A DNA stretch of 64,000 nt from a virus (Duplodnaviria > Heunggongvirae > Uroviricota > Caudoviricetes). The stretch is from IMG/VR virus record IMGVR_UViG_3300013102_000003, positions 70,644 through 134,643 of that record; one strand, written 5' to 3'. A model generated the notes under the pieces. That model was given only the letters and a program-made list of their open reading frames with translations, was not told the DNA's origin and did not search any database. This document shows, in pieces, positions 26,804-44,329 of the stretch (its first letter is position 1; the number at the start of each line of letters is the position of its first letter). The position numbers were made by a program, and so were the translations under genes.

Positions 26804-26860
26804 GTTACAAAAATTGATACGGACACCGGACTTGACACGGATGCGGATGCCGGGTAGTAT
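26804..26860 (+). promoter_or_regulatory. box + promoter unit
   Basis: TGA-GTTACAAAAATTGATAC; TTGACA-17-TAGTAT. Confidence 0.7.
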
Positions 26861-26955
26861 GGGTTATGCGGGTGCCCCAAGCCCGCCCCTCAGGAGATCC
26901 AGCCTCACACTTACCCGAGGCTGGATCTCTTCTGAATCTACCGGAAGGAGATGCC

Positions 26956-27204
26956 GTGAAGAAGACCAAGGAGAAGATCCTGCTCGCCCTCGAACAGGAC
27001 GTAGTCAATGCCGAGATGGATATGGCGCGCTGGCAGGATGCGGTGAAGCGCTACAATGCCGACCTTCTGTTCCAAGAGGAACAGGGATTCACACCGAACG
27101 CACTCACCATAGAGTCCCGTGCCGCTGCCAAGGAAGCACTGGACCGAGCAAAGGAAACCCGCCGCCTCTACACTGTTGCCGTAGATGCCGTGCGGAAGGC
27201 CTAG
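26956..27204 (+). CDS. coiled-coil hypothetical protein
   Basis: GAAGGAG SD, GTG. Confidence 0.7.
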   Translation: MKKTKEKILLALEQDVVNAEMDMARWQDAVKRYNADLLFQEEQGFTPNALTIESRAAAKEALDRAKETRRLYTVAVDAVRKA

Positions 27205-27272
27205 TTGACAATGCCGTAACCATAGGGTAGTGTTCCTCTCATCAACCATCCGTACCGATGAAAGGAACTCAA

Positions 27273-27716
27273 ATGTCAACTCAATTCCAGCCCGCCCCGC
27301 CAATGCCGTCCTACCAGCCACAGGCCCCGAAGCCGAAACCCAAACGGGCTTGGCTGCTGCCGCTGCTTCTCGTTGCCGCCATCCTCGTGGGCTTCGGAGT
27401 CGGTGCCGCCAAACCGGCTCCCGATCCGGTGACCATCACCAAGGAAGTCCCGGTCGAGAAGATCGTGGAGAAACGGGTCGAAGTCCCGGTGACTCCTGCC
27501 GCTTGCGGTGACTACATCGAGGCCTCCAGCACGGTCAATGACATTTCCTCCACGGTCGTCGGCCTCTTGTCGGACACGCTCTCTGCCGCCGTCGATCTGG
27601 ATGCGGCTAAGATCCGGGCCAACAACGCCAAGGTCGATGCGGAGACGGCCAAGCTCAAGGACATCACGCCGGAATTCCAGTCCACCCGTGACGAATGCAA
27701 AGCCAGCCTCAAGTAG
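27273..27716 (+). CDS. membrane-anchored exported protein
   Basis: GAAAGGA SD; Pro-rich N-terminus, one TM, C...C pair. Confidence 0.8.
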   Translation: MSTQFQPAPPMPSYQPQAPKPKPKRAWLLPLLLVAAILVGFGVGAAKPAPDPVTITKEVPVEKIVEKRVEVPVTPAACGDYIEASSTVNDISSTVVGLLSDTLSAAVDLDAAKIRANNAKVDAETAKLKDITPEFQSTRDECKASLK

Positions 27717-27778
27717 TTGCGGTGCGGCTGATGCCGTGATAGTCTATGAGCATCAGCCCACCACAACAGGAGGAAATC

Positions 27779-27958
27779 ATGGCAACAACCATTTTCCCGG
27801 TAACGCTTTCCGGCAAGGTCCATGCCGCGTTCGTCTTGGACTACCAGACGGACAAGTGGGCTACCATGTGCGGAAGGCAGGTACCTGACCCCACTGCCGT
27901 AGAGCACAGGGTTGCCGAAGTAACCTGCCGCAAGTGTTCCGAGAATTTGACACGGTAG
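27779..27958 (+). CDS. small zinc-binding-like protein
   Basis: AGGAGG SD; H..C..CxxC. Confidence 0.75.
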   Translation: MATTIFPVTLSGKVHAAFVLDYQTDKWATMCGRQVPDPTAVEHRVAEVTCRKCSENLTR

Positions 27959-27981
27959 TTGAAGGGGCATAGACTATAACC

Positions 27982-28317
27982 ATGTTCGAAAGAATCCAGC
28001 CCGAGACTACTCCGGCCCAGCCCACCGCTCCCGAAGAAGAAGGACCCACCTTGAAGCACATTGCCGCCGTACTCATCATGATCTCGTTGTTCCTGATCGT
28101 CACGTTCAACGCCATCCACGTCGGCTTCGTCTGGACGGATACCCACTTCAAGGGCGTCGAGCAGACCGACAGCATCCAACGCGCCAAGGACAGGTACCAG
28201 TCGCAGGTCGAGGATGCACGGACACGGTGCATCGACAAGGTTGCTGCCAAGGCCAAGGGCTTCGAGAACGTCACGCTTGACATGTGCCAGAAGGTCACAT
28301 ACACTAGGGATTACTAA
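27982..28317 (+). CDS. membrane protein (leaderless)
   Basis: TTGACA-17-TAGACT; one TM. Confidence 0.75.
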   Translation: MFERIQPETTPAQPTAPEEEGPTLKHIAAVLIMISLFLIVTFNAIHVGFVWTDTHFKGVEQTDSIQRAKDRYQSQVEDARTRCIDKVAAKAKGFENVTLDMCQKVTYTRDY

Positions 28318-28340
28318 CCACCAACGTCCTAGGAGGACCA

Positions 28341-28580
28341 GTGTTCAAGGATTACAAGAAGGGCCAGCGGGTCCGGATCTATCTCGAAGAGATTGGCAGT
28401 ATCTTCGGCACCATCGTGCAGGATCACCAGATCGCAAACCATCTCGAACTGGTCCACATCGACGGAACCCGTACGGTTGACCACCGCTGGCTTCCCAACG
28501 ACATCATCTGGGCTGAGCACTGGGAAGGTCAGTACGCTTTGGAGCGCGTCTCGGATAGCCGTTTGACACAGCCGCTGTAG
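28341..28580 (+). CDS. SH3-like small protein
   Basis: GTCCTAGGAGGAC SD; YKKGQRVRI. Confidence 0.75.
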   Translation: MFKDYKKGQRVRIYLEEIGSIFGTIVQDHQIANHLELVHIDGTRTVDHRWLPNDIIWAEHWEGQYALERVSDSRLTQPL

Positions 28581-28622
28581 TGCCGTAGGCTATAACTACC
28601 AACTAGTCCTGAGGAGGACACC

Positions 28623-28958
28623 ATGACCACCCTGAATGATTGCCTTGACTTGTACGCCGACTACCAGACCGAGATCGAGAACGACAAGATCGAGGGCTAC
28701 CGGCTCAAAGAAGCTCCGTGCCTCTCGGAAGAGATCACCTCCAAGCGGGCCACCGAGTACATGCTCAAGTACGACGGACGGCTGCGGCGCGTCTACAACT
28801 TCGAACAGGCGTCCGGGACTTCGCGCATGTACATCAACACGGACGGCGGCTACTGGAAGCGCTTCCTCACGGAAGAGGCCGTGGCCATGCTCATTGCTGG
28901 CAACCCGAGCTACGAGCGCTTGACTCTCGTCGCCCAGTTGGTTAGGGTTGCAGCATGA
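28623..28958 (+). CDS. hypothetical protein
   Basis: GAGGAGGAC SD. Confidence 0.8.
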   Translation: MTTLNDCLDLYADYQTEIENDKIEGYRLKEAPCLSEEITSKRATEYMLKYDGRLRRVYNFEQASGTSRMYINTDGGYWKRFLTEEAVAMLIAGNPSYERLTLVAQLVRVAA

Positions 28959-29299
28959 ACAGCAACCAGAAGCCCATCGAAGTAACCTTCCGTAACGGCT
29001 CTACCGTCCGGACCCTCGTTGACCCGGACAGGCTTACCGTCTACCTCGGAAACCTTGTCATGGACGACATCACCGGCATCAAGTACGGCGGCGACGTTCC
29101 AGAACCTGCCGTCGAGGTACGGCTGAGTAACGTGGACATTCACGCCTCACGTGACCGGACCACCATGGACCTGACCTTCTTCAACAAGGACGACAAGCAG
29201 GCCGCGTACATCAAATCCACTCCGGCCAGCATTCAGGAATTCGCTATCCGGCTTCTCAACCAGACGACCTACGCCTTTCAGGACTTGGCAAACCGGTAG
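28955..29299 (+). CDS. hypothetical protein
   Basis: ATGA overlap; TAG fused to box. Confidence 0.8.
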   Translation: MNSNQKPIEVTFRNGSTVRTLVDPDRLTVYLGNLVMDDITGIKYGGDVPEPAVEVRLSNVDIHASRDRTTMDLTFFNKDDKQAAYIKSTPASIQEFAIRLLNQTTYAFQDLANR

Positions 29300-29358
29300 T
29301 TACAAAACTTCATAACGGTAGAGCGGGGCTTGACGGCTCCGCTCTACTGCTGTAGTGT
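29299..29358 (+). promoter_or_regulatory. box + hairpin-loop promoter unit
   Basis: CGGTAGAGCGGGGC-TTGACG-GCTCCGCTCTACTG; -10 TAGTGT. Confidence 0.85.
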
Positions 29359-29398
29359 ATGAGTATCAGCTAGTCACCGACCAACACAGGAGGAAACA

Positions 29399-29668
29399 AT
29401 GTCAGACCTCACCATCGAAGCCACGGTTATCACCCAGTCCGGTACGGACCTCACTCCGGTCGCCGTCAAGATCAACGGAACCGGCTCCATCCCGAACGGC
29501 GCACTCCGGGCCATTGCTATGGAAGCGCTCGCCACCTTCACCGGGAGCCACGAGTCCCACCATGGCTTCAAGGTTGAGGCCGAACCGTCCTTCAAGGAAG
29601 AGATGGACGACACCATCTCCATCTTCCCGGTGTTCCGGTCGCTGGTCCGGTCCGAAGTTCCCTGCTAG
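29399..29668 (+). CDS. hypothetical protein
   Basis: AGGAGG SD. Confidence 0.8.
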   Translation: MSDLTIEATVITQSGTDLTPVAVKINGTGSIPNGALRAIAMEALATFTGSHESHHGFKVEAEPSFKEEMDDTISIFPVFRSLVRSEVPC

Positions 29669-29729
29669 TTACAAAAATTGATACGGCACCGGAGTTGACA
29701 CATAGACTACGGTGCCGTATCGTTGTAAC
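29668..29729 (+). promoter_or_regulatory. box + hairpin-loop promoter unit
   Basis: GATACGGCACCG/CGGTGCCGTATC stem; TTGACA-17-TATCGT. Confidence 0.85.
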
Positions 29730-29754
29730 TACCAACCCAACAACGGAGGACACC

Positions 29755-29988
29755 ATGGCAGCAATGACAGCAATGACCGACACCGAGGCCGCAAAGGTCA
29801 TCGAAGAGATGTTCGAGACTGCTGTAGAGGATGTACGGGAACTCTACCGCCGCATCGAAGAACTGCGGAAGGACTTCCAGACCGACCCGTGGGAGGATAC
29901 GGCGGCGCAGATCAAGCGCCTTGAGGCCCGCCACGCAAAGCGGGCAAAGGAAGCTGCGGCACTGGCCATAGCGTCCATGAAGTTCTAG
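29755..29988 (+). CDS. coiled-coil hypothetical protein
   Basis: GGGAGGAC SD. Confidence 0.8.
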   Translation: MAAMTAMTDTEAAKVIEEMFETAVEDVRELYRRIEELRKDFQTDPWEDTAAQIKRLEARHAKRAKEAAALAIASMKF

Positions 29989-30043
29989 TTACAAAACTTC
30001 ATAGTCTAGGGCGGTTGACACCACAGCCGTCCTAGACTAGAGT
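29988..30043 (+). promoter_or_regulatory. box + hairpin-loop promoter unit
   Basis: TAGTCTAGGGCGG/CCGTCCTAGACTA; TTGACA-17-TAGAGT. Confidence 0.85.
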
Positions 30044-30081
30044 TAGTACTACCAACACAGCAACAGTCCTAGGAGGACAAA

Positions 30082-30495
30082 ATGAGCATCGAAACCGATT
30101 CCCGCGTTAACATCTCCGACCTCTCCACCCGCGCCGAAGAGTGCGCGGACATTCTGGAAGATCCGGAGCAGTACGAACCGGAGGACATTGACGAGGCCAA
30201 CGCGGACCTCAAGATCCTTGGGGACTTCGTCGGCAACTGCAACCACTCGTACGATCCGGAGGACCCTCACAGCATCGTGTCGGCTCTGGACAGCATCGGA
30301 CAGGATGAGGACACTCTCATCTCCGAAGACACGTTCGAGGACTACGCACAGGAATACGTCGAAGACTTCGGACTCATCCCGGACACCCTCTCCGACCTCA
30401 TCAAGACCAACATCGATTGGGCCGGAGTCGCCAACGACCTGCGGTCCGACTTCTCTTCGGTGACGCTGGACGGCGTGGACTACCTCCACCGCTGA
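30082..30495 (+). CDS. ArdA-like antirestriction (DNA mimic) protein
   Basis: very acidic; FEDYAQEYVEDFG..P..L..NIDW..VANDL..D resembles ArdA C-terminus. Confidence 0.6.
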   Translation: MSIETDSRVNISDLSTRAEECADILEDPEQYEPEDIDEANADLKILGDFVGNCNHSYDPEDPHSIVSALDSIGQDEDTLISEDTFEDYAQEYVEDFGLIPDTLSDLIKTNIDWAGVANDLRSDFSSVTLDGVDYLHR

Positions 30496-30552
30496 GTTAC
30501 AAAACTTCATTACGGGGCCGGACTTGACACCACGAGTCCGGTCCCGTAGTGT
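30496..30552 (+). promoter_or_regulatory. box + hairpin-loop promoter unit
   Basis: TACGGGGCCGGACT/AGTCCGGTCCCGTA; TTGACA-17-TAGTGT. Confidence 0.85.
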
Positions 30553-30588
30553 TAGTACTACCAACCCACCAGTCCATAGGAGGACACA

Positions 30589-31131
30589 ATGACTCTCTCA
30601 AATCTTCTCATGACCGCATACGTGAACACTGCTTCGGAAGCCGGTAAAAGCGTCTGGGACATTCTGGAAGAGGTGGCACGCGAACACCTGACCGCCGAAC
30701 TCTACAAGCAGGCATCCGGCTTGTTCGACCCGGACACCGTGATCGACACACGGAAAAACGAGTACCAGCGCGGAGTGACCGAGTTGATCCTGCGATTCAC
30801 CGGCACGGAGGTTGATGATATTGGCGACGTTGCGACCACCATCAGCGAGGGTACCAGCACCGCCCACCTCCTGACGGCTGCGGACTTCGTTGAAGATGCC
30901 AACGGCTCCCTTCTCTACATCGGCCCGCTATACCCGGCTATGCAGTTCATCAAGAACAACAACGAGGTGGACGGTCCCAACCGCCACATCCTCACCGGCA
31001 AGTGGACCGTCAAGCTTGACGGCGGCAACGTCTGGGGGACCGCTGACACTGCGGAAATGGCATGGCGCTATGCAATCGGCGCGGAGTTCGGGCCGATTGA
31101 CGAGGGCTTCAGCCCGTTCCGGCTCAAGTAG
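30589..31131 (+). CDS. hypothetical protein
   Basis: TAGGAGGAC SD. Confidence 0.85.
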   Translation: MTLSNLLMTAYVNTASEAGKSVWDILEEVAREHLTAELYKQASGLFDPDTVIDTRKNEYQRGVTELILRFTGTEVDDIGDVATTISEGTSTAHLLTAADFVEDANGSLLYIGPLYPAMQFIKNNNEVDGPNRHILTGKWTVKLDGGNVWGTADTAEMAWRYAIGAEFGPIDEGFSPFRLK

Positions 31132-31187
31132 TTACAAAACTTCATACGGGTCCGGTAGTTGCATAGACTACCGGACTCGTGTAGCGT
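31131..31187 (+). promoter_or_regulatory. box + hairpin-loop promoter unit
   Basis: CGGGTCCGGTAGT/ACTACCGGACTCG; TTGCAT-17-TAGCGT. Confidence 0.85.
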
Positions 31188-31224
31188 AGGTACTACCAAC
31201 CGAACAACAGCCTAGGAGGCTACC

Positions 31225-31566
31225 GTGAACAGCGTAACCATCACCGCCATTCTTGACGAAGACGACAACAATCCGGTGTTTGAGGTCAAAGACAACAGCG
31301 GCAACGCAACGAACGCCGTCACCATCGATGACGCGTTTAGTATTGCACGCCGGTGGATCAAACCGGCCAAGTCGCTGGAAGAGATGGCCGAAGAGTGGAT
31401 CAAGGCCCACGGTACCAATGTCCTCGACGACATGCGCGAGGACGTTGAAACCGAGTTCGAACTGACCTTCACCGAAGATCAATGGGACTCATTCGCCAAC
31501 ATGATCGAGTACGCCAAGGTCACGATCATCTTCCCCTACGGCTGGGGAGTACCGCCCACCGAGTAG
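31225..31566 (+). CDS. acidic hypothetical protein
   Basis: TAGGAGG SD, GTG. Confidence 0.8.
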   Translation: MNSVTITAILDEDDNNPVFEVKDNSGNATNAVTIDDAFSIARRWIKPAKSLEEMAEEWIKAHGTNVLDDMREDVETEFELTFTEDQWDSFANMIEYAKVTIIFPYGWGVPPTE

Positions 31567-31621
31567 TTACAAAACTTCATAGTCTACGGGAGTTGACTCT
31601 ACGGCTCCCGTAGACTATTGT
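31566..31621 (+). promoter_or_regulatory. box + hairpin-loop promoter unit
   Basis: ATAGTCTACGGGAGT/GCTCCCGTAGACTAT; TTGACT-17-TATTGT. Confidence 0.85.
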
Positions 31622-31657
31622 TAGTAGTACCAACCCAGCTAGTCCTAGGAGGACACA

Positions 31658-31969
31658 ATGCCCGTAGCAACGGATACCACAATCAGCATCGACACCATCG
31701 AAGCAAAGATGGAAGAGCTTGGATACGAGACGGAGTACTTCGGTGACGACGACGCCACCATGTTCTTCATCCGGATCGGTGACAAGGAAATCACCATCTA
31801 CAACGGCGTGTCCGGTGACTACTTCCGTCCGGAGGACGTGACCGTGGCCGAATACTTCTTCGGCATCATGGGCAAGGACCTGACGGAGAAGTTCGCGGAA
31901 TGCGAATCCATCCACGACTTCGTCGCCGTGGTGCAGGACGCAATGGCCGTCAGCTTCATGGCACGGTAG
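31658..31969 (+). CDS. acidic hypothetical protein
   Basis: TAGGAGGAC SD. Confidence 0.85.
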   Translation: MPVATDTTISIDTIEAKMEELGYETEYFGDDDATMFFIRIGDKEITIYNGVSGDYFRPEDVTVAEYFFGIMGKDLTEKFAECESIHDFVAVVQDAMAVSFMAR

Positions 31970-32024
31970 TTACAAAACTTCACTACGGTAGCGGGTTGAC
32001 ACCATCGGCCCGCTACCGTAGACT
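31969..32024 (+). promoter_or_regulatory. box + hairpin-loop promoter unit
   Basis: CTACGGTAGCGGGT/GCCCGCTACCGTAG; TTGACA-17-TAGACT. Confidence 0.85.
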
Positions 32025-32030
32025 ATAACT

Positions 32031-32062
32031 ACCAACCAACCAACCAACCAACCAACCAACCA
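32031..32062 (+). repeat. (ACCA)8 tandem repeat in 5' leader
   Basis: eight perfect ACCA units. Confidence 0.9.
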
Positions 32063-32087
32063 AGAACAACCGTCCTAGGAGGACACC

Positions 32088-32444
32088 ATGGATCGTGAAG
32101 CCCGCGCCGAAATCATCTGCAACCTTGCAGGCAAGGACCCCAACAACGAAGCCGACTGGGCGGAAGCTCTGGCCGAAGCTGACCAGCAGATCGCTGACGG
32201 CTTCGAGTACGCCGCCGAGACGTATCCCGCCGCCTACCACTGGCTTGGGTGGGAGTCCGAAGCTGACTTTGAACCCGGACGCCCGGACACGTACTTCCTG
32301 ACCATCTGCCACCCGGACGGCGAAGAGTACGCGGTAATCATCCACCGGACGGTTGACGGACAGTTCCCGCTCGACGGCGAGGTTGCCAAAGGCAAGGAAG
32401 CAGACGCGCAACGGATCGTTGACGCGCTGAACGCCACGCTCTAG
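32088..32444 (+). CDS. acidic hypothetical protein
   Basis: TAGGAGGAC SD. Confidence 0.85.
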   Translation: MDREARAEIICNLAGKDPNNEADWAEALAEADQQIADGFEYAAETYPAAYHWLGWESEADFEPGRPDTYFLTICHPDGEEYAVIIHRTVDGQFPLDGEVAKGKEADAQRIVDALNATL

Positions 32445-32499
32445 TTACAAAACTTGATACGGCTCCGGACTAGACACCTAGTCCGGAGTCGTATAGACT
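32444..32499 (+). promoter_or_regulatory. box + hairpin-loop promoter unit
   Basis: ATACGGCTCCGGACTAG-ACAC-CTAGTCCGGAGTCGTAT; TAGACA-17-TAGACT. Confidence 0.8.
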
Positions 32500-32543
32500 A
32501 TTACCAACGGATCAACCAGATCCCAAAGTCCTAGGAGGACACC

Positions 32544-32951
32544 ATGGCAGACCACGGATACCACCCACTTGGCAAGTACTCTTCCGCCCGCGACGACGCG
32601 TTGCACTTCCTGTGCACCTCCGGATGGGAGATGGGCGAGTTCGGCAACGTGTCGGACTACGGAGTCTACTTCTGGCAGATCAGCAACGATCCGGCAGACG
32701 TGCAGCAGTCCAACGGCGAGTTCACTTCGATCTTTGAGGACTGGCTCAAGGACAACCCGGAGGTCACAGACAGCCCGGAACTGCGGACGGAGCTTGTAGG
32801 CCACTTCATCGTCTCCGAGACGGACAGCGGCGCTGTGAGCGTGCAGGCATTCGATAGCGTGGAAGCGCTGAACAAGTTCTGGCTTGACCAACTGGGACGG
32901 TACGCCGAGTGGGACGACTGCGGTCCGGACTACTTGGAGGACACGGAGTAG
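32544..32951 (+). CDS. acidic hypothetical protein
   Basis: TAGGAGGAC SD. Confidence 0.85.
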   Translation: MADHGYHPLGKYSSARDDALHFLCTSGWEMGEFGNVSDYGVYFWQISNDPADVQQSNGEFTSIFEDWLKDNPEVTDSPELRTELVGHFIVSETDSGAVSVQAFDSVEALNKFWLDQLGRYAEWDDCGPDYLEDTE

Positions 32952-33008
32952 TTACAAAACTTTAGAGTGGCCCTAGGCCTTGCACCTAGGGCCGCTCTAG
33001 TGTATTGT
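32951..33008 (+). promoter_or_regulatory. box + hairpin-loop promoter unit
   Basis: TAGAGTGGCCCTAGG/CCTAGGGCCGCTCTA; TTGCAC-17-TATTGT. Confidence 0.85.
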
Positions 33009-33041
33009 TGGTACTACCAACCCAGAACAACGGAGGACAGA

Positions 33042-33335
33042 ATGAAAGCTCTACTCGCCACCAAGCTTCGCAACCAGATCACTGCCATTGATCCGGTCCT
33101 GATTGTGACGCTCAGGAACGTGTCCGTGAACGGCGTCAAGTTCGGATGCTCCGGATTCATCACGGACCCGCGAACGGGTAAGCACGTGTACGTGAACACG
33201 GACCACAACCACCAGACCAACACAAAGGCCTACTACCGGACCGCCGAGAGCACCAAGGATTACACGGGAGGCATGAACCACTTCGCCTATTACGAGGACG
33301 TGGCAGCGGCAGCGGTGCACCTGCTTACCAAGTAG
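33042..33335 (+). CDS. hypothetical protein
   Basis: GGAGGAC SD. Confidence 0.85.
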   Translation: MKALLATKLRNQITAIDPVLIVTLRNVSVNGVKFGCSGFITDPRTGKHVYVNTDHNHQTNTKAYYRTAESTKDYTGGMNHFAYYEDVAAAAVHLLTK

Positions 33336-33378
33336 TTACAAAAATTGAGAGCGGTCCTACGGGGCCGCTCTTAATTTT
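33335..33378 (+). terminator. box + promoterless terminator hairpin
   Basis: AAAATTGAGAGCGGTCC-TACG-GGGCCGCTCTTAATTTT (UACG loop). Confidence 0.8.
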
Positions 33379-33506
33379 GCCTACGCTAAGAGCGAAGCTC
33401 AGAACCGGTCTTTCTCGCCACCCGTCTCAGGGCGGCTATCATGTGGGCCTTTCGGCTTACTTCAAGCTTAGCCTACCTGCGGTGCGAAGTCAACACGGAA
33501 TCCGTC

Positions 33507-37900: not shown

Positions 37901-37953
37901 CAAAACTTCATAGGGCCGGTGGATTGGACAACAGTCCACCGGTCCTGTAGTCT
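37897..37953 (+). promoter_or_regulatory. variant box (GTAACAAAACTTCA) + hairpin-loop promoter
   Basis: AGGGCCGGTGGATTG/CAGTCCACCGGTCCT; TGGACA-17-TAGTCT. Confidence 0.8.
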
Positions 37954-38000
37954 TTACTTATCGGATCAACCGAATCCGCTGAATGTCCTAGGAGGACAAA

Positions 38001-38345
38001 ATGTCTGATCGTATCTCCCGCGCCGACGTTGTTGCAGCTACCGCGTGGCTCCAGAAGGAAGCGCACCGGCTCGAAATCCTCCCGCGTGATGCCTACCTCG
38101 TTTTCTCACCCGGCAACACGAGTCAGGGCCACTCGCCGGAAGTGTCCGTGTTCCTGACCGAACCGGCCAGCAACGGACGCCAGACAATGCGCGTCAACTT
38201 CCTGCCCGCGTTCACCTACAAGACCACACGTAAGCAGGCGTGGCAGCTTATCAACGCGGCAGCGCGTGCACTGGCAGCGGTGCCCACGCGGGAAGACCCG
38301 ATCATGTGCAACGAGTGCATCGAATACAACGACCGTCAGGTCTAG
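38001..38345 (+). CDS. hypothetical protein
   Basis: TAGGAGGAC SD. Confidence 0.85.
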   Translation: MSDRISRADVVAATAWLQKEAHRLEILPRDAYLVFSPGNTSQGHSPEVSVFLTEPASNGRQTMRVNFLPAFTYKTTRKQAWQLINAAARALAAVPTREDPIMCNECIEYNDRQV

Positions 38346-38402
38346 TTACAAAACTTCACTACGGTCCTAGGTGTTGCGCCTAGGGCCGTAGTGCTGTAGT
38401 CT
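38345..38402 (+). promoter_or_regulatory. box + hairpin-loop promoter unit
   Basis: CACTACGGTCCTAGG/CCTAGGGCCGTAGTG; TTGCGC-17-TAGTCT. Confidence 0.85.
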
Positions 38403-38445
38403 ATCTATATCGGTTCAACCGGAACCGCCAAGCTTAGGAGTCACC

Positions 38446-38733
38446 TTGAAGACTGAAGTCAAGTTCACTGCATCCGTCAACAACGCGGACACGGAGGAAG
38501 AGTTCCACGGTTGGGTAGATCCCCAGTACAGCATGTGGACGCTGTTCGAGGATGAACCGGAGCGCCGCTACGTGTTCGACACGCGGGAAGAGGCGGAAGA
38601 GTTCGTTGACTCCACAATCGGAAGTGCGGACCACTTCGACGGCGAAGACTGGTACGCGGCGGATGCCAAGATGAACTTGGAGTCCGGCGAAGACTGGTCC
38701 TACCATGCACGGTTCTACGAAGTCTCAGAGTAA
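38446..38733 (+). CDS. very acidic hypothetical protein
   Basis: TAGGAG SD, TTG. Confidence 0.8.
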   Translation: MKTEVKFTASVNNADTEEEFHGWVDPQYSMWTLFEDEPERRYVFDTREEAEEFVDSTIGSADHFDGEDWYAADAKMNLESGEDWSYHARFYEVSE

Positions 38734-38740
38734 CACCAAC

Positions 38741-38770
38741 GAAAGGCCCTGCTACGGCAGGGCCTTTCTT
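38741..38770 (+). terminator. intrinsic terminator
   Basis: GAAAGGCCCTGC-TACG-GCAGGGCCTTTC+TT. Confidence 0.8.
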
Positions 38771-38942
38771 GTGTCTGCGGGAGGCTACGCGGGCTGCTGT
38801 AGGGCCTTGGACGTGCTGGCAGGCACCGGAGGGCAGGGAGCGCGTGGAAGGCTCTTAGAACGGCTGCTAGCCGTGTTTGACACGCGGCAGGGTCATAGAC
38901 TAAGCTGGTGGTAAGCGAAAGAACAATACACTAAAGGGGAAG

Positions 38943-39179
38943 ATGATGGACGGCAAGAAATTCCAGATCACGACGTTCGAGGACTGGACGGACAAGCGCC
39001 AGCCGGGGCAGACAGTGCGGGCCGGACTCTCGTGGGAAGAGGCTCTAAAGCACCTTGAGTCGGCGCGTGACGCTGATATCGACTTCGCGTTGGAGTCGAT
39101 GAAGGTTCACAAGTTCTACGAGTTCCACGACGCCAGCGGACGTATCGTGAAGCTGCAACCTCACACGGTAGTTGCGTAA
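38943..39179 (+). CDS. hypothetical protein
   Basis: TTGACA/TAAGCT promoter; AAGGGGA SD. Confidence 0.75.
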   Translation: MMDGKKFQITTFEDWTDKRQPGQTVRAGLSWEEALKHLESARDADIDFALESMKVHKFYEFHDASGRIVKLQPHTVVA

Positions 39180-39231
39180 GCGGCGAACATAGGCTAAGCT
39201 GGTATTACCAACAAAGCCTAGGAGGCACAAA

Positions 39232-39489
39232 ATGATCGCACTGGACGCTATTCACCGGGACCGTCACACTGAGGACATCACGGGAGTGACTTTCAAGATC
39301 ACCGGGGAGGACGTGAACCGCGACAACGACAAGCTACACGCCGAACTGCGGCAGCGCATCCAAGACATGCGCGTGACGATGGACATCCCCGAGCTTCCCG
39401 AATACTCCGGATGGATTCAGCCCAACTACCGCGAAGGGCAGGGGAGCATCGACTACCTGCTCATGAGCTACACAGTCGAAGGCTTCTAG
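39232..39489 (+). CDS. hypothetical protein
   Basis: TAGGAGG SD. Confidence 0.8.
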   Translation: MIALDAIHRDRHTEDITGVTFKITGEDVNRDNDKLHAELRQRIQDMRVTMDIPELPEYSGWIQPNYREGQGSIDYLLMSYTVEGF

Positions 39490-39544
39490 TTACAAAACTT
39501 GGAAGGGCCGTCAGCTTGCGCTGGCGGTCCTTTTCGCGTACGCT
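39489..39544 (+). promoter_or_regulatory. box + hairpin-loop promoter unit
   Basis: AAGGGCCGTCAGC-TTGC-GCTGGCGGTCCTT; TTGCGC-17-TACGCT. Confidence 0.8.
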
Positions 39545-39550
39545 GGTACT

Positions 39551-39694
39551 ATGAAGCTCCGGAGGCAGGGGAACCAGAGGACCCCTTTTGTAAATGGGCG
39601 GTTACAAAAATTGATAGCGCGGGCTGGCTTGACTCTGGTCATAGACTATGAGAAGATTGATTTATCAAGCAGGGAGCTTGAGGAACTGACTTAG
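39551..39694 (+). CDS. possible leaderless 47-aa peptide
   Basis: ATG 6 nt after TACGCT; overlaps next box and promoter. Confidence 0.35.
   Translation: MKLRRQGNQRTPFVNGRLQKLIARAGLTLVIDYEKIDLSSRELEELT
39586..39634 (+). promoter_or_regulatory. head-to-head box pair + -35
   Basis: TTTTGTAA-8 nt-TTACAAAA; TTGACT 28 nt after box. Confidence 0.55.
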
Positions 39695-39702
39695 GAGTCA
39701 CA

Positions 39703-40008
39703 ATGGGATTCACGATCACCCACTCTTCCCTCGAAGGCGACAACATGGGCGAGAAGCTGGAGAAGCTGGAAGTGCCCCGCGTTTACGGCACCAGCCCTGC
39801 TGAGCGTGAGAGCATCCGCGACGGCAAGGCGGGCAAGGGAACCCACTTCAAGCTCTACGACGACGACGACAACTGCTACTTCACCGGCTACTTCTACGGC
39901 GATGCAGACTCGGAGGATGCATTCCAGCCGCTCGACTGGGCAACCCACGACGCCGGATGCACTTACATCAAATACCGTCAGGCAGACGGCAAGTACGAAA
40001 CCCTCTAA
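39703..40008 (+). CDS. hypothetical protein
   Basis: GACTTAGGAGTC SD. Confidence 0.8.
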   Translation: MGFTITHSSLEGDNMGEKLEKLEVPRVYGTSPAERESIRDGKAGKGTHFKLYDDDDNCYFTGYFYGDADSEDAFQPLDWATHDAGCTYIKYRQADGKYETL

Positions 40009-40040
40009 GGAATGGGCCGGGAAACCGGCCTTTCCTTTTG
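40009..40040 (+). terminator. intrinsic terminator
   Basis: GGCCGG-GAAA-CCGGCC+TTTCCTTTT. Confidence 0.75.
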
Positions 40041-40208
40041 TCCACGGCCCAATTATTTTGTGGCTCCCCTCGTTTCCCTGCTGGTGGGCTTCATGTATTC
40101 AGTCTAAGCGCGGAACGCGTGAAAGTCAATACCGCGTTGGAGTTGCGTTGTGCTCTAGAGTATGAGAGTATTGATTCATCAGCAAGACGAAGTCCTTAGG
40201 AGGATACC

Positions 40209-40466
40209 ATGAAGTCAGTCAAGAGCAACGAACTCGAAGCCGGTACGTGGGCCGCACACGCGCACGATCTCCCCAACTGCGGAGGAATTCAGATCGGTTT
40301 GCAGGGTGAGGTTGTGGAAGTCAAGCACACCGATATGTGGGGAGTTGCTTCCGAGACCCACACAACGGTCTACCTCCGGGAACGTGGCGCGGACAAGTAC
40401 GACGTGAAGGTTCGCACGTTCCACAACTCGCACACGTGGCTGGTGCGTACGCTCCCGACGCACTAG
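40209..40466 (+). CDS. hypothetical protein
   Basis: TAGGAGG SD. Confidence 0.8.
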   Translation: MKSVKSNELEAGTWAAHAHDLPNCGGIQIGLQGEVVEVKHTDMWGVASETHTTVYLRERGADKYDVKVRTFHNSHTWLVRTLPTH

Positions 40467-40467
40467 A

Positions 40468-40523
40468 GTTACAAAACTTTCTTACACTCCGGAGTAGACA
40501 ACTGCTCCGGAGTGTGAGAGTAT
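40468..40523 (+). promoter_or_regulatory. box + hairpin-loop promoter unit
   Basis: CTTACACTCCGGAGTAG-ACAA-CTGCTCCGGAGTGTGAG. Confidence 0.75.
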
Positions 40524-40560
40524 TACTTATCGGAACAATCCGAATGACTTAGGAGTCACA

Positions 40561-40761
40561 ATGGAAACTGATTACTCGTACGGACGCTGGTGCACGGTAG
40601 CAGAGCAGCGTTGGATGATCGTGGACTCTGGCCGGTGGACGGTAGCAGTCTACGACGACAACGAAAAGCGCGTACGGCTCTTCGACAAGTCCGTTGTCTC
40701 GGAAGTCTCGGACTTCCTGCTGACAGACTCGCAGCGGGCAGCCCTCGGGTACGCGTTCTAG
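40561..40761 (+). CDS. hypothetical protein
   Basis: TGACTTAGGAGTCA SD. Confidence 0.8.
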   Translation: METDYSYGRWCTVAEQRWMIVDSGRWTVAVYDDNEKRVRLFDKSVVSEVSDFLLTDSQRAALGYAF

Positions 40762-40817
40762 TTACAAAACTTCACACGGTACGGGGACTTGCAAGAGTCC
40801 CCGTACTCGTGTAATGT
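40761..40817 (+). promoter_or_regulatory. box + hairpin-loop promoter unit
   Basis: GTACGGGGACTT-GCAA-GAGTCCCCGTAC; TTGCAA-17-TAATGT. Confidence 0.85.
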
Positions 40818-40862
40818 CTTTCTTAACGGAGCAACCGGCTCCCAAAGATTCTTGGAGGAATC

Positions 40863-41105
40863 ATGAAGCGCAACATGTACACACTGGTCCTGAACGTTCC
40901 GGCCTCGGTCCGTGAGTCGGAAGAGCGCTTCGACTTCGAACCGCTGTCTTGGTGGATTCGGCAGGAAGATGGAACCTCCAACGTCCACCAGCGTGTGTAC
41001 TTGGACGGTGGCCGGTTGTTCGGAGAGTCTGACAAGTATCAGGAAGGCCTGAGCGACGTTGTGAGGGACTTTGACCGGTTCGTGAGCCTCACACCCATCC
41101 GCTAG
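40863..41105 (+). CDS. hypothetical protein
   Basis: GGAGGA SD. Confidence 0.8.
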   Translation: MKRNMYTLVLNVPASVRESEERFDFEPLSWWIRQEDGTSNVHQRVYLDGGRLFGESDKYQEGLSDVVRDFDRFVSLTPIR

Positions 41106-41168
41106 ATTCTAGACCTCGGGAGAGGCCTTAGGGCCTCTCCCATCACCCTCTCAAACTTAGGAGCAGTA

Positions 41169-41339
41169 ATGGCACGTAAATGGTCCGTCGAAAAGATCGC
41201 ACGCGTTGAGGCACAAGCCGAACGGCTTGGAGAGTTGCAAAAATTCATAGTGGCCTCGCCGTTGTTCCCGCTGGCTCTGGTGCTGGCGTTCGTCGCAGTC
41301 GCGGGGCTGCTGATCGGAGCGCTTGAGCACACGTTCTAG
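41169..41339 (+). CDS. small membrane protein
   Basis: TAGGAG SD; 56 aa with C-terminal TM. Confidence 0.65.
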   Translation: MARKWSVEKIARVEAQAERLGELQKFIVASPLFPLALVLAFVAVAGLLIGALEHTF

Positions 41340-41530: not shown

Positions 41531-41564
41531 GAAAAGACCCTCACCGGTTTGGTGAGGGCCTTTC
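41531..41564 (-). terminator. terminator of leftward block
   Basis: GAAAAGACCCTCACC/GGTGAGGGCCTTTC stem. Confidence 0.65.
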
Positions 41565-41566: not shown

Positions 41567-41788
41567 TTAGAACGGGAGGTTGTATTCGGATTGAAGATCC
41601 GGAATGTAAACGTCTTCCGGTTCGGTGTGACCGTGAGGGCATTCATTTTCGTAGTCTTCGTAGTCGTGCTCTTCGCAGTAGTAAGCCCGTTCGTCCGCGT
41701 AGGGATCGAATGCTTCGGCTCGCATGACGTCCAACCATTCGGTCTGGTTGTCGTACTGCTCTTCTTCAAGCTGCTGAATCCAAGACAT
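41567..41788 (-). CDS. very acidic small protein with Cys/His motifs
   Basis: AGAGAAGAG leader; YCEEH, CPHGH. Confidence 0.75.
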   Translation of the reverse strand: MSWIQQLEEEQYDNQTEWLDVMRAEAFDPYADERAYYCEEHDYEDYENECPHGHTEPEDVYIPDLQSEYNLPF

Positions 41789-41829
41789 TTGGTTCTCTTC
41801 TCTGTGGAGTTGTTGGCCTTACAAGAGAT

Positions 41830-41908
41830 ACACTACGGCAGCGGGAGAGTGTTGTCAACACAAAGCAATAGCCCCACCCTTTCGGGTGAGGCTATCAACT
41901 TTTGTAAC
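41830..41908 (-). promoter_or_regulatory. box + GAAA-loop terminator + separate promoter
   Basis: TA-GTTACAAAAGTT; hairpin 41867-95; TTGACA-17-TAGTGT. Confidence 0.8.
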
Positions 41909-42117
41909 TAGAGGCTGTCCTGTTGGTAGGTGAACATCCCGCCGGAACCTTGGATGAAGATGTAACCGCGTCCGTCGAGGCATTCAGACACGTAGTCCGG
42001 ATCATTCGGATACATCCGCGCTGCCAGTTCGTAGACCTCGTTGTCCGGCTTGTCTTCGAGTCGCATCGACTCGCCGTACTCGCCGTCAGACTTGAGCGGC
42101 TTGAAGAATACCTTCAT
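41908..42117 (-). CDS. hypothetical protein
   Basis: AGAAGAGAGAAC leader. Confidence 0.75.
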   Translation of the reverse strand: MKVFFKPLKSDGEYGESMRLEDKPDNEVYELAARMYPNDPDYVSECLDGRGYIFIQGSGGMFTYQQDSL

Positions 42118-42156
42118 GGTGTTCTCTCTTCTCTGTGGAGTTGTGCTTACCCTCAT

Positions 42157-42226
42157 AGACTATGCCCTTTGGTTCGGGCTGTCAAGCCGATAGGCCCTCC
42201 GGAGAGGGCCTATCAACTTTTGTAAC
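42157..42226 (-). promoter_or_regulatory. box + terminator hairpin + separate promoter
   Basis: GATAGGCCCTC-4 nt-GAGGGCCTATC; TTGACA-17-TAGTCT. Confidence 0.8.
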
Positions 42227-42432
42227 TACTCGCCGTCCCACCAGTCCTGCTCGCCGCAGTAGTCATCCTGTTCGTCGGAGTTGCAGGCGGGGCATTCGTC
42301 CGTGCATCCCGCCGTGCTGTAGATGTAGAACCACTCTCCGGAGAACCGGGATTGGGTCGGGGAGACAATGCGCTGGTGGCCTGCCGCGTCCATGTAGACC
42401 TTGTCGCCGGGGTATTCGGTGAACGTGTTCAT
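42226..42432 (-). CDS. small acidic Cys-rich protein
   Basis: GCTDECPACN. Confidence 0.75.
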   Translation of the reverse strand: MNTFTEYPGDKVYMDAAGHQRIVSPTQSRFSGEWFYIYSTAGCTDECPACNSDEQDDYCGEQDWWDGE

Positions 42433-42479
42433 GTTCGTCTCTTCTCTGCTCTGTGGAGTTGTGAACTGCTTATGTAGAT

Positions 42480-42536
42480 ACTCTAAGGCAGGAACAGGGA
42501 GCGTGTCAACTCCCCGTCCCTGTGAACTTTTGTAAG
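42480..42536 (-). promoter_or_regulatory. variant box + hairpin-loop promoter
   Basis: CTTACAAAAGTTCA; TTGACA-18-TAGAGT. Confidence 0.75.
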
Positions 42537-42539
42537 TCC

Positions 42540-42716
42540 TTAGAGCTTCGTGGAGCGGTTGCGTATGAAGTCCTGCACGGACTCGTTGCGCGACTCCTGA
42601 ATGCTGGTTAGGCGGCGCTCTGTGAGGCGTTCACGCTCGCCAGCGTCGAGGTATGAGACAAACTCAACGAACGCGGGAGAGAGCAAGGGAGCAGTCTTTA
42701 CAGTCTTGGCAGGCAT
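42540..42716 (-). CDS. hypothetical protein
   Basis: 58 aa ORF in leftward block, weak SD. Confidence 0.5.
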   Translation of the reverse strand: MPAKTVKTAPLLSPAFVEFVSYLDAGERERLTERRLTSIQESRNESVQDFIRNRSTKL

Positions 42717-42826
42717 GGGAGGCGTCCTAACGCGTTGGGATGGGTTGGATGGGTGAGAGTGGCCGGTGAGTGGTTTGAAGCCGTTAGGCGGGCAGACAGA
42801 CCCCGTAGGGCCTGCCTGCCGGTTGC

Positions 42827-43105
42827 CTAGTCGCAGCAGTCGCGGGAGGTGCAGTTGTGGTTGTGCAGGTTGCAGGATGATTCGGTGAGGATTCCCTCAG
42901 TGGATTCGTCGCGGTCCAACTCTTCGAAGAAGATCTCTTCGTCGCTGCCTTCGGTGCACTCGGCGCACGTTCCGGCTTCGTTGGCGTACGTCTCGCAGTT
43001 CTCGCAGCGGAACAGTGGCGGGCAGTCGCATTCGTCGCCGTACGGGCTGGCGTTCTCCCACGCGGACTGAGCGGAGCGGAAGCCGTAAGAGGAAGTGATC
43101 GACAT
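42827..43105 (-). CDS. Cys-rich acidic protein
   Basis: GAAAGGA SD; CDC, CENC, CAEC, CC. Confidence 0.75.
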   Translation of the reverse strand: MSITSSYGFRSAQSAWENASPYGDECDCPPLFRCENCETYANEAGTCAECTEGSDEEIFFEELDRDESTEGILTESSCNLHNHNCTSRDCCD

Positions 43106-43144
43106 GGTGTCCTTTCGTGGCCGGTGCATCCGGCTCATGAGTAA

Positions 43145-43191
43145 AGACTATGCCCTATCGGGCCGAGTGTCAAACTGTGAAGATTTGTAAC
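43145..43191 (-). promoter_or_regulatory. variant box + promoter
   Basis: GTTACAAATCTTCA; TTGACA-17-TAGTCT. Confidence 0.7.
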
Positions 43192-43244
43192 GGGCAGACC
43201 CTCCGGAGTGGAGAGCCTGCCCGTCGAATCAAGAGAGTGTGGGC

Positions 43245-43343
43245 CTAGCGGCCTGCCTGTAAGGTTGCCTTCCACTTGGAGAGCAGAGCGGCAGCGACTC
43301 CATAGAACGGGAGAGTGTGGGCGATACGTGAGAAAAGCTTCAT
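43245..43343 (-). CDS. 32-aa peptide
   Basis: GGAGGACAC SD, own promoter. Confidence 0.6.
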   Translation of the reverse strand: MKLFSRIAHTLPFYGVAAALLSKWKATLQAGR

Positions 43344-43386
43344 GTGTCCTCCGTTGGGTTGGCTGGCTTGGTAGGCCAGTAACTAC

Positions 43387-43445
43387 AGCCTAAGGCACCG
43401 GCTCGCGGGATGCAAGCCGGTGCCGCTGCTATTACTTTTTGTAAG
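43387..43445 (-). promoter_or_regulatory. variant box inside upstream CDS + hairpin-loop promoter
   Basis: CTTACAAAAAGT; GGCACCGGC/GCCGGTGCC; TTGCAT-17-TAGGCT. Confidence 0.7.
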
Positions 43446-43770
43446 TCAGCACGTGCCACGTGCGCGGGAGGTTCACGGACGGAACGATAACCTCATGTGC
43501 GCGGTGCGCCGGTCGCGTGTGCACGGTGCGTACGTAGGTCAGCACGTGCTTCCGGTCATAGCGCGGTACGTGCTTCATGTACTCCATCGATTCCCACGCG
43601 TCCCCAATTGTCTTGACGCTGCCCTTGCACTGCTTGACTCCCAGAGTGTCACAGTCCCACGTGTGGGCTGCGGTGGGCGTGTTGGTGGCTGCGGTGGCCG
43701 GGAGAGTGGTACCGGCTGCGATAAGCAGGGCTGCGGTGGCTGCGGTGGCGAGCTTTGCAAGGATGTTCAT
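43432..43770 (-). CDS. secreted protein
   Basis: AGGAGA SD; Sec-type signal peptide ending ATA/ATAA. Confidence 0.75.
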   Translation of the reverse strand: MNILAKLATAATAALLIAAGTTLPATAATNTPTAAHTWDCDTLGVKQCKGSVKTIGDAWESMEYMKHVPRYDRKHVLTYVRTVHTRPAHRAHEVIVPSVNLPRTWHVLTYKK

Positions 43771-43811
43771 GATTCTCCTGTTGGTTGGTACTGCTTGGTT
43801 GGTACTCTTAT

Positions 43812-43868
43812 AGACTAAGGCATGCCGACCCGAGATGCAAATCGGCATGCCCTAGCAAGTTTTGTAAC
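43812..43868 (-). promoter_or_regulatory. box + hairpin-loop promoter unit
   Basis: CTAGGGCATGCCGAT/GTCGGCATGCCTTAG; TTGCAT-17-TAGTCT. Confidence 0.85.
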
Positions 43869-44230
43869 TACGCGTCTTGCAAGGTATCCCACTTGAAGAC
43901 GTGGAACGCGTTAGGGAGAGTGTTGGACTCTACAGCGAAGTAGCCTGCACCTGCTGGCAGGTTCTCGGGCTGGCCGGTGACTGTCTCGACGTAGGAGAGC
44001 ATGAGGTTCTTGGAGTCCTCGGGAGCGTGGATGTTGGCTGTCTCAATGGCGTTCCATGCGTCCGTCTTGAGCGTGTCAGCCTGTCCGTTACCCATAGTCG
44101 CCGCATCCCAACATGCGTCCTCTTCGTGGCAGACAGTCTGTGTAGTCGCTGTAGGCGCGGCATCCGGTGCTGGTGAGGGTGAGCCAAGGATCACTGAGAG
44201 GGAGATGATGAGGGCTGTGATGAGGGACAT
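43868..44230 (-). CDS. secreted/membrane-anchored protein, paralog of 43432-43770
   Basis: AGGAG SD; hydrophobic N-terminus. Confidence 0.75.
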   Translation of the reverse strand: MSLITALIISLSVILGSPSPAPDAAPTATTQTVCHEEDACWDAATMGNGQADTLKTDAWNAIETANIHAPEDSKNLMLSYVETVTGQPENLPAGAGYFAVESNTLPNAFHVFKWDTLQDA

Positions 44231-44272
44231 GATGACTCCTGACCTGTGATGCACCCTGTGTGCATATGTATG

Positions 44273-44329
44273 ACTCTAGTGTATGTATGCCTTATGTGCA
44301 AGATGTGAATCACTATGAATTTTTGTAAA
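44273..44329 (-). promoter_or_regulatory. variant box + promoter heading the leftward block
   Basis: TTTACAAAAATTCA; TTGCAC-17-TAGAGT. Confidence 0.7.

Follow-up and report, generated by a model that had tools for sequence, protein, structure and literature searches.

An array of single-gene cassettes in a large soil phage

The 64,000-nucleotide (nt) stretch of viral DNA analysed here (the window; positions 70,644-134,643 of the IMG/VR virus record IMGVR_UViG_3300013102_000003) carries approximately 40 small genes, each of which lies behind the same compact junction. These genes are monocistronic cassettes with their own expression signals, and their junctions share a short AT-rich sequence, the box, that is often fused to the stop codon of the gene upstream. 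Coordinates are those of the window unless marked as genome coordinates. The cassettes are arranged as a long plus-strand array followed by a short convergent block:

26804-41339, plus strand: array of about 35 small genes, with 26 junction boxes between 26804 and 41234
41567-44340, minus strand: convergent block of seven small genes, with boxes at 41897-41908, 42215-42226, 42525-42536, 43180-43191, 43857-43868 and 44318-44329

A plus-strand array that leads into a short convergent minus-strand block is also found in the phages Racecar (minus block at 18.1-20.3 kb) and Atuin; Racecar has 55 box copies on the plus strand and 14 on the minus strand. In a prediction made from the letters of the window, the cassettes were described as self-contained single-gene units with unrelated cargo. 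Both statements hold: each unit has its own promoter, Shine-Dalgarno sequence (SD) and open reading frame (ORF), and the cargo proteins are mutually unrelated except for one paralogous pair encoded on the minus strand.

The source genome is a contig of 168,556 bp from a rhizosphere metagenome, and IMG/VR classes the record as end-repeat/complete (circular-type assembly). Because megablast of the array against GenBank phages gave no match, relatives were found via the portal protein (59798-61447), which has 64-67% identity to the portal proteins of the Arthrobacter globiformis phages Racecar, Mimi, Talia1610 and Atuin (genomes of ~194 kb) and 43-46% identity to those of large Microbacterium phages. 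Its closest relatives are from Arthrobacter, Microbacterium and Gordonia phages, with no T4-like origin. Based on this comparison, the source virus is probably a large soil phage of the Arthrobacter type with a genome of ~190 kb. Scans of IMG/VR with the 14-nt box or with the box plus -35 hexamer gave nearly exclusively single matches that arise by chance; the true relatives L133 and L063 were recovered only through box counts per locus, and a search of IMG/VR with the DndB-like protein described below found nothing. In a literature search, no publication was found that deals with Racecar, Atuin or Pumpernickel-type phages, or with the terminal repeats of these phages.

Anatomy of the junction

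From 5' to 3', a unit consists of the stop codon/box, a long hairpin that begins 0-3 nt further on and has a TTGACA-like sequence at its apex, a TAnnnT sequence, a leader, a strong SD and the small ORF. The type junction has the following layout:

29988-30084, plus strand: type junction, with TAG/box at 29986-29999 and the hairpin at 30002-30039 (16-bp arms, 6-nt loop)
30015-30020 and 30038-30043, plus strand: -35 (TTGACA) and -10 (TAGAGT) of the type junction
30048-30056, 30066-30078 and 30082, plus strand: leader ACTACCAAC, SD mini-hairpin GTCCTAGGAGGAC and ATG of the type junction

The hairpin stems are 15-19 bp long; the -35 occupies the top of the 5' arm and the loop, the 3' arm makes up the spacer and the base abuts the -10. 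In nearly all units, the TTGACA-like -35 is followed by the TAnnnT -10 with the usual spacer of 17 nt (16-18), and a promoter scan identified 20 promoter-like sites compared to 7.6 expected in shuffles. Folding of 27 junction segments gave a mean of -29.6 kcal/mol, whereas shuffles gave -11.8 +/- 3.3 and coding controls -11.6, in agreement with the original prediction of a hairpin with the -35 in its loop and the -10 behind it. Because the stem sequences all differ between junctions and pairing nevertheless persists, the hairpin is a structure and not a binding site.

The box is fused to stop codons and keeps its distance to the promoter

With at most one mismatch, GTTACAAAANTT has 37 matches in the window, while 0.39 are expected from shuffles (largest shuffle value 3), and 32 of the 37, i.e. 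26 on the plus strand and 6 on the minus strand, are in 26804-44329. In the whole genome, the exact box is present only at genome 94.8-114.5 kb, which is the array region. Thus, the repetition and clustering of the box reported in the original prediction are upheld, as is its count of 23 copies in which the G of the box is the last base of a TAG: these are real, in-frame stops of SD-anchored ORFs. Two further fusions are to TGA, and one is to a TAA within a GTAACAAAA variant. Outside the array, only 34 of 94 long ORFs end in TAG.

The distance from the start of the box core to the -35 is 25-28 nt, mostly 26-27 nt, in the window, Racecar, Talia1610 and Atuin, and places the box at approximately -62 to -51 relative to the next promoter. 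This spacing is kept at promoters that lack the hairpin (26804, 39601). It is also kept at 44329(-), where the minus block has its first promoter and no gene lies upstream. Similarly, Atuin units behind a classical T-tract terminator have the box at the usual spacing and lack the wrapped hairpin. Pure terminators without a promoter, e.g. at 41538-41558, have no box. Because of the fixed spacing to the -35, also at promoters that have no hairpin or come first in a unit, we read the box as a promoter element; it may be an UP-like element that absorbed AT-rich stop codons.

Across genomes, only the pattern "stop codon, A-tract, N, TT" is conserved, and the box is uniform within each genome, which has its own dialect (e.g. 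TAG-TTACAAAAcTT, c-TAACAAAAAyTT and TAAAAAcTTTT). These dialects indicate concerted evolution, in which the junctions are homogenised by recombination. A box that is uniform within and different between genomes would equally be expected of a site that co-evolves with a cognate protein. On this alternative, the box is an asymmetric operator for a phage-encoded or virion-delivered regulator that switches the early array, similar to the stoperators of cluster A mycobacteriophages or to a class-I activator site, while hairpin and recombination work as in the model below. The layout of the box, i.e. a 12-nt asymmetric motif in ~35 copies that are all co-oriented with transcription, short intergenic and overlapping stop codons, matches the description of L5-type stoperators (PMC9283540), and the box is limited to what appears to be a single temporal module. 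Also, a search of 185,579 bacterial and archaeal genomes for the composite of box and -35 gave, among the matches listed, scattered singles in unrelated, mostly AT-rich taxa; by this weak test, there would be no sign of host promoters using the composite, as expected for a phage-specific site. However, no candidate regulator was identified, concerted evolution via the observed recombination explains the uniformity equally well, and what is kept across dialects, an A-tract and then T's, resembles a generic UP element. Moreover, the fixed placement at -62 to -51 upstream of the -35 is unsuited to an elongation roadblock, and an immunity repressor is unlikely because there is no integrase in the genome. 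Overall, we consider the operator an unlikely alternative, and favor the reading of the box as an UP-like element.

Two ways in which the box could contribute to termination were considered. Pairing of its A-tract with a downstream U-tract, which would extend a terminator stem, was rejected; the complementarity is found in a few units only. The idea that the box complement, AAGTTTTGTAAC, provides an antisense terminator with its U-tract is retained for the convergence zone only, and the terminator scan calls a terminator of this kind at 42189-42214.

The hairpin bears the signature of an RNA structure

When the stems of the window are read on the gene-sense strand, their non-Watson-Crick pairs comprise 23 G.T, no A.C and one G.A. 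When eight arrays are pooled, G.T outnumbers A.C by 74 to 8, and by 35 to 5 in the stem body outside the -35. This excess of G.T is the signature of a hairpin that is selected as sense-strand RNA. In addition, the hairpin co-occurs with stop fusion: in the pooled arrays, 77 of 83 stop-fused boxes have a strong hairpin compared to 8 of 40 non-fused boxes, and the corresponding counts for the window are 26 of 27 and 2 of 8. Instead of the hairpin, non-fused boxes often have an ordinary terminator ahead. Because of the G.U bias on the sense strand and the co-occurrence with stop-fused boxes, we read the hairpin as part of the RNA of the upstream gene. Transcripts from a cassette's own promoter would start downstream of the hairpin and, therefore, only RNA from the upstream cassette would contain it. 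In that RNA, the hairpin may act as a terminator or as a 3' stabiliser/insulator, and the two observations lend indirect support to the insulation of expression that the original prediction assigned to the junction.

Six of the wrapped hairpins (32962, 34179, 34612, 37594, 37910, 40479) pass the terminator scan because the -10/discriminator gives them a T-rich tail. GAAA, UCCG or UACG tetraloops are present in the hairpins that are not wrapped around a promoter. The following features illustrate the range:

34600-34692, plus strand: junction with terminator-like hairpin at 34612-34649 (17 pairs), whose T-rich tail TATTGTTGGT contains the -10
33335-33381, plus strand: box followed by a short classical terminator, with the hairpin at 33347-33372 (UACG loop) and then TTAATTTTG; no good promoter follows
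41538-41558, no strand assigned: hairpin terminator without box in the zone where plus and minus units converge, from the terminator scan

Two unusually long non-coding gaps inside the array, 33347-33573 and 39500-39700, each come after a box and a classical terminator. They have no Rfam match and could be decayed cassettes or small RNAs. A search of the whole window against Rfam returned no family.

The inverted repeats could alternatively act as DNA. As a cruciform, or as a hairpin in the single-stranded sense strand, they might control use of the promoter (N4-like or by sensing supercoiling) or be the actual recombination substrate. They are near-perfect palindromes of 15-19 bp with short loops that cover the whole core promoter, their stem sequences vary with pairing kept, and a strand-specific hairpin of single-stranded DNA predicts the same bias of G.T over A.C; a giant ORF of the virion module that follows the portal gene is also in line with this idea. 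By contrast, the hexamers are canonical sigma-A hexamers with 17-nt spacing and an extruded cruciform would destroy the promoter, the G.T wobbles present in most stems weaken a DNA hairpin but not an RNA hairpin, and the hairpin is mostly missing where a separate terminator precedes the box, which fits a role at the 3' end and not at the promoter. The breakpoints of cassette exchange described below are in the box, -10 and SD rather than in the stems. A T7/N4-type RNA polymerase domain (PF00940) was not found in the genome, although the control genomes gave no match either. A function as DNA is, in our view, very improbable, and we retain the reading as sense-strand RNA.

Leaders and ribosome-binding sites

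According to the original prediction, most units have the leader ACTACCAAC and an SD within a hairpin. Both elements exist, and neither is general. ACTACCAAC is present in ~9-12 units and represents one of two leader classes. The second class comprises seven units with a covarying mini-hairpin of 5-6 bp and a CAACCG (or CAATCCG) loop close to the predicted 5' end of the mRNA; this hairpin is also present in junctions of Racecar, Atuin, L133 and L154, and may be a 5' stabiliser. An SD is located 8-11 nt ahead of every start codon. The exact palindromic SD mini-hairpin GTCCTAGGAGGAC, with a 5-bp stem and an AGG loop, is found in 11 units and covarying variants, e.g. GCCTAGGAGGC and GACTTAGGAGTC, occur elsewhere. 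The SD mini-hairpin may modulate translation.

35901, 36216, 37301, 37967, 38416, 40536 and 40832: leaders with CAACCG loop
28326, 30066, 31642, 32072, 32528, 33558, 34246, 34674, 36844, 37657 and 37985: GTCCTAGGAGGAC sites
32032-32063, plus strand: (CCAA)8 microsatellite, an expanded CA-rich leader of the cassette starting at 32088

Contigs from related strains break at this microsatellite.

Cassettes are gained, lost and exchanged at the junctions

In five natural indel or replacement events between near-identical relatives, the breakpoints fall within the box, in the -10 region or at the SD/start, and common cassette families occur in differing order in the window, Racecar, Atuin, L133, L144, L147/149 and L154. 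These observations substantiate the proposal in the original prediction that the junction is the crossover for gain, loss and reordering of genes. Racecar has 94-96% nucleotide identity to Mimi and Talia1610, and the sole large difference is one additional Racecar cassette, with its left breakpoint directly after box+GAATA and its right breakpoint at the SD of the next gene. For the window itself, the comparison is with query-like strains, i.e. 90-99% similar contigs from root and soil metagenomes, in which two cassettes are missing:

31131-31566, plus strand: cassette missing in related strains, with a 113-amino-acid (aa) ORF at 31225-31566
34167-34641, plus strand: cassette missing in related strains, with an ORF at 34262-34600

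The first absence corresponds to the joint 31126->31562, which is present in contigs of runs X2 and X4, skips 435 positions and leads from box to box; 20 letters are shared at this joint. The second corresponds to the joint 34208->34641 (runs X2, X4 and X6), which falls in the -10 region and has 16 letters in common. At 32559->32946 and 40558->40762, ORF bodies are swapped between start codon and box in related strains, and additional joints in the query-like strains imply an altered cassette order. Finally, L144 and L145, two contigs from metagenomes, have 99.94% identity over 8.4 kb save for one exchanged whole cassette (promoter, leader and ORF) of 395 bp in L144 (10377-10771) and 361 bp in L145 (8386-8746). 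The encoded proteins are unrelated, and the breakpoints are within the left box and at the next box. This pair is useful for an experimental or population study of cassette exchange. In other phages, members of the same cargo family are also encoded in operons that have no box.

An integron-like system, in which a dedicated site-specific recombinase captures and excises cassettes at the box or hairpin, could also account for single-gene cassettes whose junction is conserved while the hairpin varies, and for clean one-cassette indels in relatives. However, no tyrosine or serine recombinase (Phage_integrase and Resolvase domains) is present in the genome, each cassette brings a promoter of its own, which integron cassettes do not, and the breakpoints are scattered in the junction with 16-20 nt shared, as in homologous exchange. 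A recombinase had been proposed in the original prediction as something to seek in the whole genome, and none specific to the array turned up: RecA, RecT and ERF were not found in the genome either, and the only recombination-type gene detected is AAA_24 (Sak4-like; genome C1:8188-8814). An integron-like mechanism was already disfavoured, and we regard it as extremely improbable. Because the breakpoint positions vary, 16-20 nt are shared and no specific recombinase was found, the data point to cassette exchange by general short-homology recombination and not by site-specific recombination. We think it quite improbable that the junction evolved as a "cassette socket", in which the box is read by a dedicated phage factor and/or a sense-strand hairpin in single-stranded replicating DNA actively promotes cassette capture, excision and reordering. 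If true, such a socket would be an integron-like gene-acquisition platform without an integrase in large actinobacteriophages.

The array is most likely part of a long terminal repeat

In Racecar, the array fills a direct terminal repeat of 20,468 bp, and each box copy in 899-20273 recurs at 174608-193982. In Atuin, a variant box is found within a direct terminal repeat of 17,312 bp. Synteny with these phages delimits a corresponding region in the window:

22870-44500, no strand assigned: predicted long direct terminal repeat, one collapsed copy (boundaries approximate)

At the left boundary, 22987-23601 is the ortholog of gene 1 in Racecar/Atuin-type phages and 22925-23010 aligns with the first 40-75 bases of Racecar and Atuin; at the right boundary, ~44463-44717 aligns with Racecar 20425-20493, the right end of the Racecar repeat. 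In the source metagenome (Logan contigs), contig depth is 21x over 35.0-42.2 kb and 13.8x over 45.1-54.9 kb, a suggestive difference that does not decide the matter. Because of the boundary synteny with Racecar and Atuin and the higher contig depth inside, the array likely lies in a collapsed repeat. Thus, ~22.9-44.5 kb of the window is most likely a single collapsed copy of a ~21-kb terminal repeat, an arrangement that is firm in the relatives and predicted for this genome. The region is probably a module of early host-takeover/anti-defence genes. This setting in a long terminal repeat, as in SPO1 and T5, had been missed in the original prediction; the pre-early genes of T5 are another early region in a terminal repeat.

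Cargo and neighbouring genes

Almost all cassette proteins are orphans (Pfam, PHROG). The following two genes in the predicted repeat have domain matches:

30082-30495, plus strand: ArdA-like anti-restriction (DNA-mimic) gene encoding 137 aa, net charge -31, pI 4.1
24434-25909, minus strand: gene with a DndB/ParB-like nuclease domain, near the left end of the predicted repeat and not in a cassette

The ArdA-like protein matches Pfam ArdA with 27.3 bits (cut-off 27) and PHROG 2059 (anti-restriction protein) with an E value of 8.8e-7. In general, the cargo is acidic, with a pI below 5 in 21 of 40 cassette proteins and a net charge of -11 to -31 in many; this fits DNA-mimic or host-inhibitor roles without proving them. 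The anti-defence platform envisaged in the original prediction is backed in part, by the one ArdA-like gene and the general acidic excess. The DndB-like protein matches Pfam DndB with an E value of 8.3e-11 and has 61% identity to Racecar gp5 ("ParB-like nuclease domain"); the gene is in the same place in Racecar, Mimi, Talia1610 and Atuin.

Beyond the predicted repeat, the following genes were observed:

47191-48063: protein with collagen triple helix repeats, just beyond the predicted repeat
55398-56306 and 56753-58189: phosphoribosyltransferase-domain protein and NAPRTase-family protein, which form a NAD salvage pair and lie immediately upstream of the portal gene, in synteny with Racecar and Atuin
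61452-63998: start of a giant ORF right behind the portal gene that extends past the window end

The first 849 aa of the giant ORF have no Pfam match; its Racecar counterpart, which is annotated as "DNA helicase", has 2,710 aa and its Atuin counterpart 3,114 aa.

A model for the cassette array

Based on these data, we suggest that the region is probably an early module of ~40 monocistronic cassettes, which are joined by a composite terminator-promoter and most likely lie in a long terminal repeat. In this model, a junction would have four parts. In the first, the upstream stop codon is merged in the AT-rich box (TAG-TTACAAAAnTT), which at ~-62 to -51 would serve as an UP-like upstream element. 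The second is the hairpin of 15-19 bp, with a 5' arm at -50 to -36, the -35 as its apex and a 3' arm that would use the otherwise unconstrained 17-nt spacer. The third is the TAnnnT -10, which would also provide a moderately T-rich tail, and the fourth a leader, either CA-rich or of the 5'-hairpin type, plus a strong SD. Host RNA polymerase with sigma-A would initiate at every junction; no phage sigma factor was found in the genome. As these transcripts would start downstream of the hairpin, the hairpin would form only in RNA that arrives from the upstream cassette, and there it would end or at least 3'-stabilise the message and insulate it from the next cassette. Because the ~90-nt junction is repeated ~35 times in direct orientation, general homologous recombination could delete, duplicate, replace and reorder cassettes, and the same process would homogenise the junctions.

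Several observations weigh against this model. First, the minus-strand units 41908 and 42226 break the spacing rule: their box abuts a short hairpin of the tetraloop type, inserted between box and promoter, and the -35 is 40-49 nt off. Second, the sequence specificity of the box within a genome exceeds what an UP element needs, and the composite of box and -35 was not enriched in Micrococcaceae among the matches listed, which is a weak test. Third, most wrapped hairpins are without a true U-tract and may stabilise or process RNA instead of terminating transcription, while strand-biased deamination could add a little to the G.T excess. Fourth, the depth ratio for the putative repeat is 1.5x rather than 2x, and the contig across the predicted right boundary has a depth of 15.1x, which is below what a boundary would give. 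Finally, no RNA run matched the sequence.

If the model is correct, the array would show in a very regular form how nature can fit ~40 early genes, each expressed independently, into 20 kb, with one sequence that doubles as stop-codon context, upstream promoter element, terminator/3' stabiliser and core promoter. The box would mark the early/host-takeover/anti-defence gene set of Racecar/Atuin-like phages and of many uncultured soil relatives, and so make this set easy to mine. The junctions could also become compact, insulated expression parts for Actinobacteria.

Comparison with known systems

Several known systems share individual features with the array. Morons and integron cassettes are single genes with or beside their own expression signals that are gained and lost as units. 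However, morons are without a shared flanking repeat, and integron cassettes have no promoter and depend on an integrase and attC; neither description applies to the array. N4-type hairpin promoters are short (5-7 bp), conserved hairpins used by a single-subunit RNA polymerase from the virion. By contrast, the hairpins described here are long, variable in sequence and enclose sigma-A hexamers. In Microbacterium phage Pumpernickel (L278), TTGACA is present in the loop of a hairpin of 10-12 bp at ~7190-7320 and 9230-9350, in one case with ACAAAAAG ahead; other early promoters of this phage belong to the TGTGATAGACT type with an extended -10, and lie behind classical terminators. Because some Pumpernickel junctions hold TTGACA in a hairpin loop behind an A-tract, the hairpin-wrapped promoter design extends beyond the exact box.

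The stoperators of cluster A mycobacteriophages, i.e. the sites of L5 gp71 (PMC9283540, PMC6550527), resemble the box in that an asymmetric motif of 12-13 nt is present in more than 20 co-oriented copies, which are short intergenic and often at gene ends in actinobacteriophages. They differ in that stoperators are distributed genome-wide in temperate phages, bind the immunity repressor and block elongation, whereas the box occurs only in a single 20-kb module of a phage that appears to be lytic, has a fixed position upstream of a promoter and no known cognate protein.

With respect to genomic setting, SPO1's host-takeover module appears to be the closest match. The small early genes of this module lie in the terminal region and have strong promoters and strong ribosome-binding sites (PMC6873191). 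Both modules are blocks of ~25-40 small genes, mostly orphans, whose promoters are strong and of the sigma-A type and whose ribosome-binding sites are strong as well. Early expression, a location in a direct terminal repeat of 12-20 kb and the inclusion of host-inhibiting or DNA-mimic proteins would also be shared, all three being predictions for the array. However, SPO1 genes are in operons with heterogeneous junctions and without a uniform box-hairpin junction, and junction-mediated shuffling is not known from SPO1.

The junction itself is most similar to the PeSL (promoter-early stem-loop) elements of T4-like phages, in which an upstream stop codon in an AT-rich region is followed by a sigma70 promoter, with a stem-loop between or over the hexamers, and by an SD and start codon (PMC2839356). 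Such cassettes are known from RB49/phi1, PST and nt-1 (Arbiol et al. 2010, PMC2839356; Comeau et al. 2014, PMC4122927); promoter and terminator activity have been measured, and recombination from PeSL to PeSL gave indels and mini-circles (PMC2839356, PMC4122927). The original prediction, in which the layout appeared to be without precedent, is upheld only in part: the same parts have been described in PeSL (PMC2839356), and for this particular array we found no earlier description in the searchable literature. In both systems, a repeated intergenic composite of ~70-100 nt comprises a stop codon in an AT-rich tract, a promoter, a stem-loop, an SD and a start codon. Both flank small orphan early genes in hyperplastic regions, and in both close relatives differ by indels or replacements of one cassette with crossovers inside the motif. 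The two systems belong to unrelated host and phage lineages, here a large actinobacteriophage and there T4-like myoviruses. Moreover, the array described here has a sharply defined 12-nt box at a fixed distance to the -35, a stop codon that is fused base for base with this box, a longer stem (15-19 bp) that encloses the -35 instead of lying between -35 and -10, and one continuous series of ~40 cassettes, apparently within a terminal repeat. For PeSL, promoter and terminator activity and mini-circles are experimental results, while the array is known from its sequence. Overall, the array is best read as the actinobacteriophage counterpart of PeSL, i.e. as a close functional analogue in which all sequence-level features recur, and not as a homologous member related by common descent. 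If so, the principle underlying PeSL, in which regulatory junctions double as the recombination points that shuffle orphan genes, would have arisen independently in actinobacteriophages.

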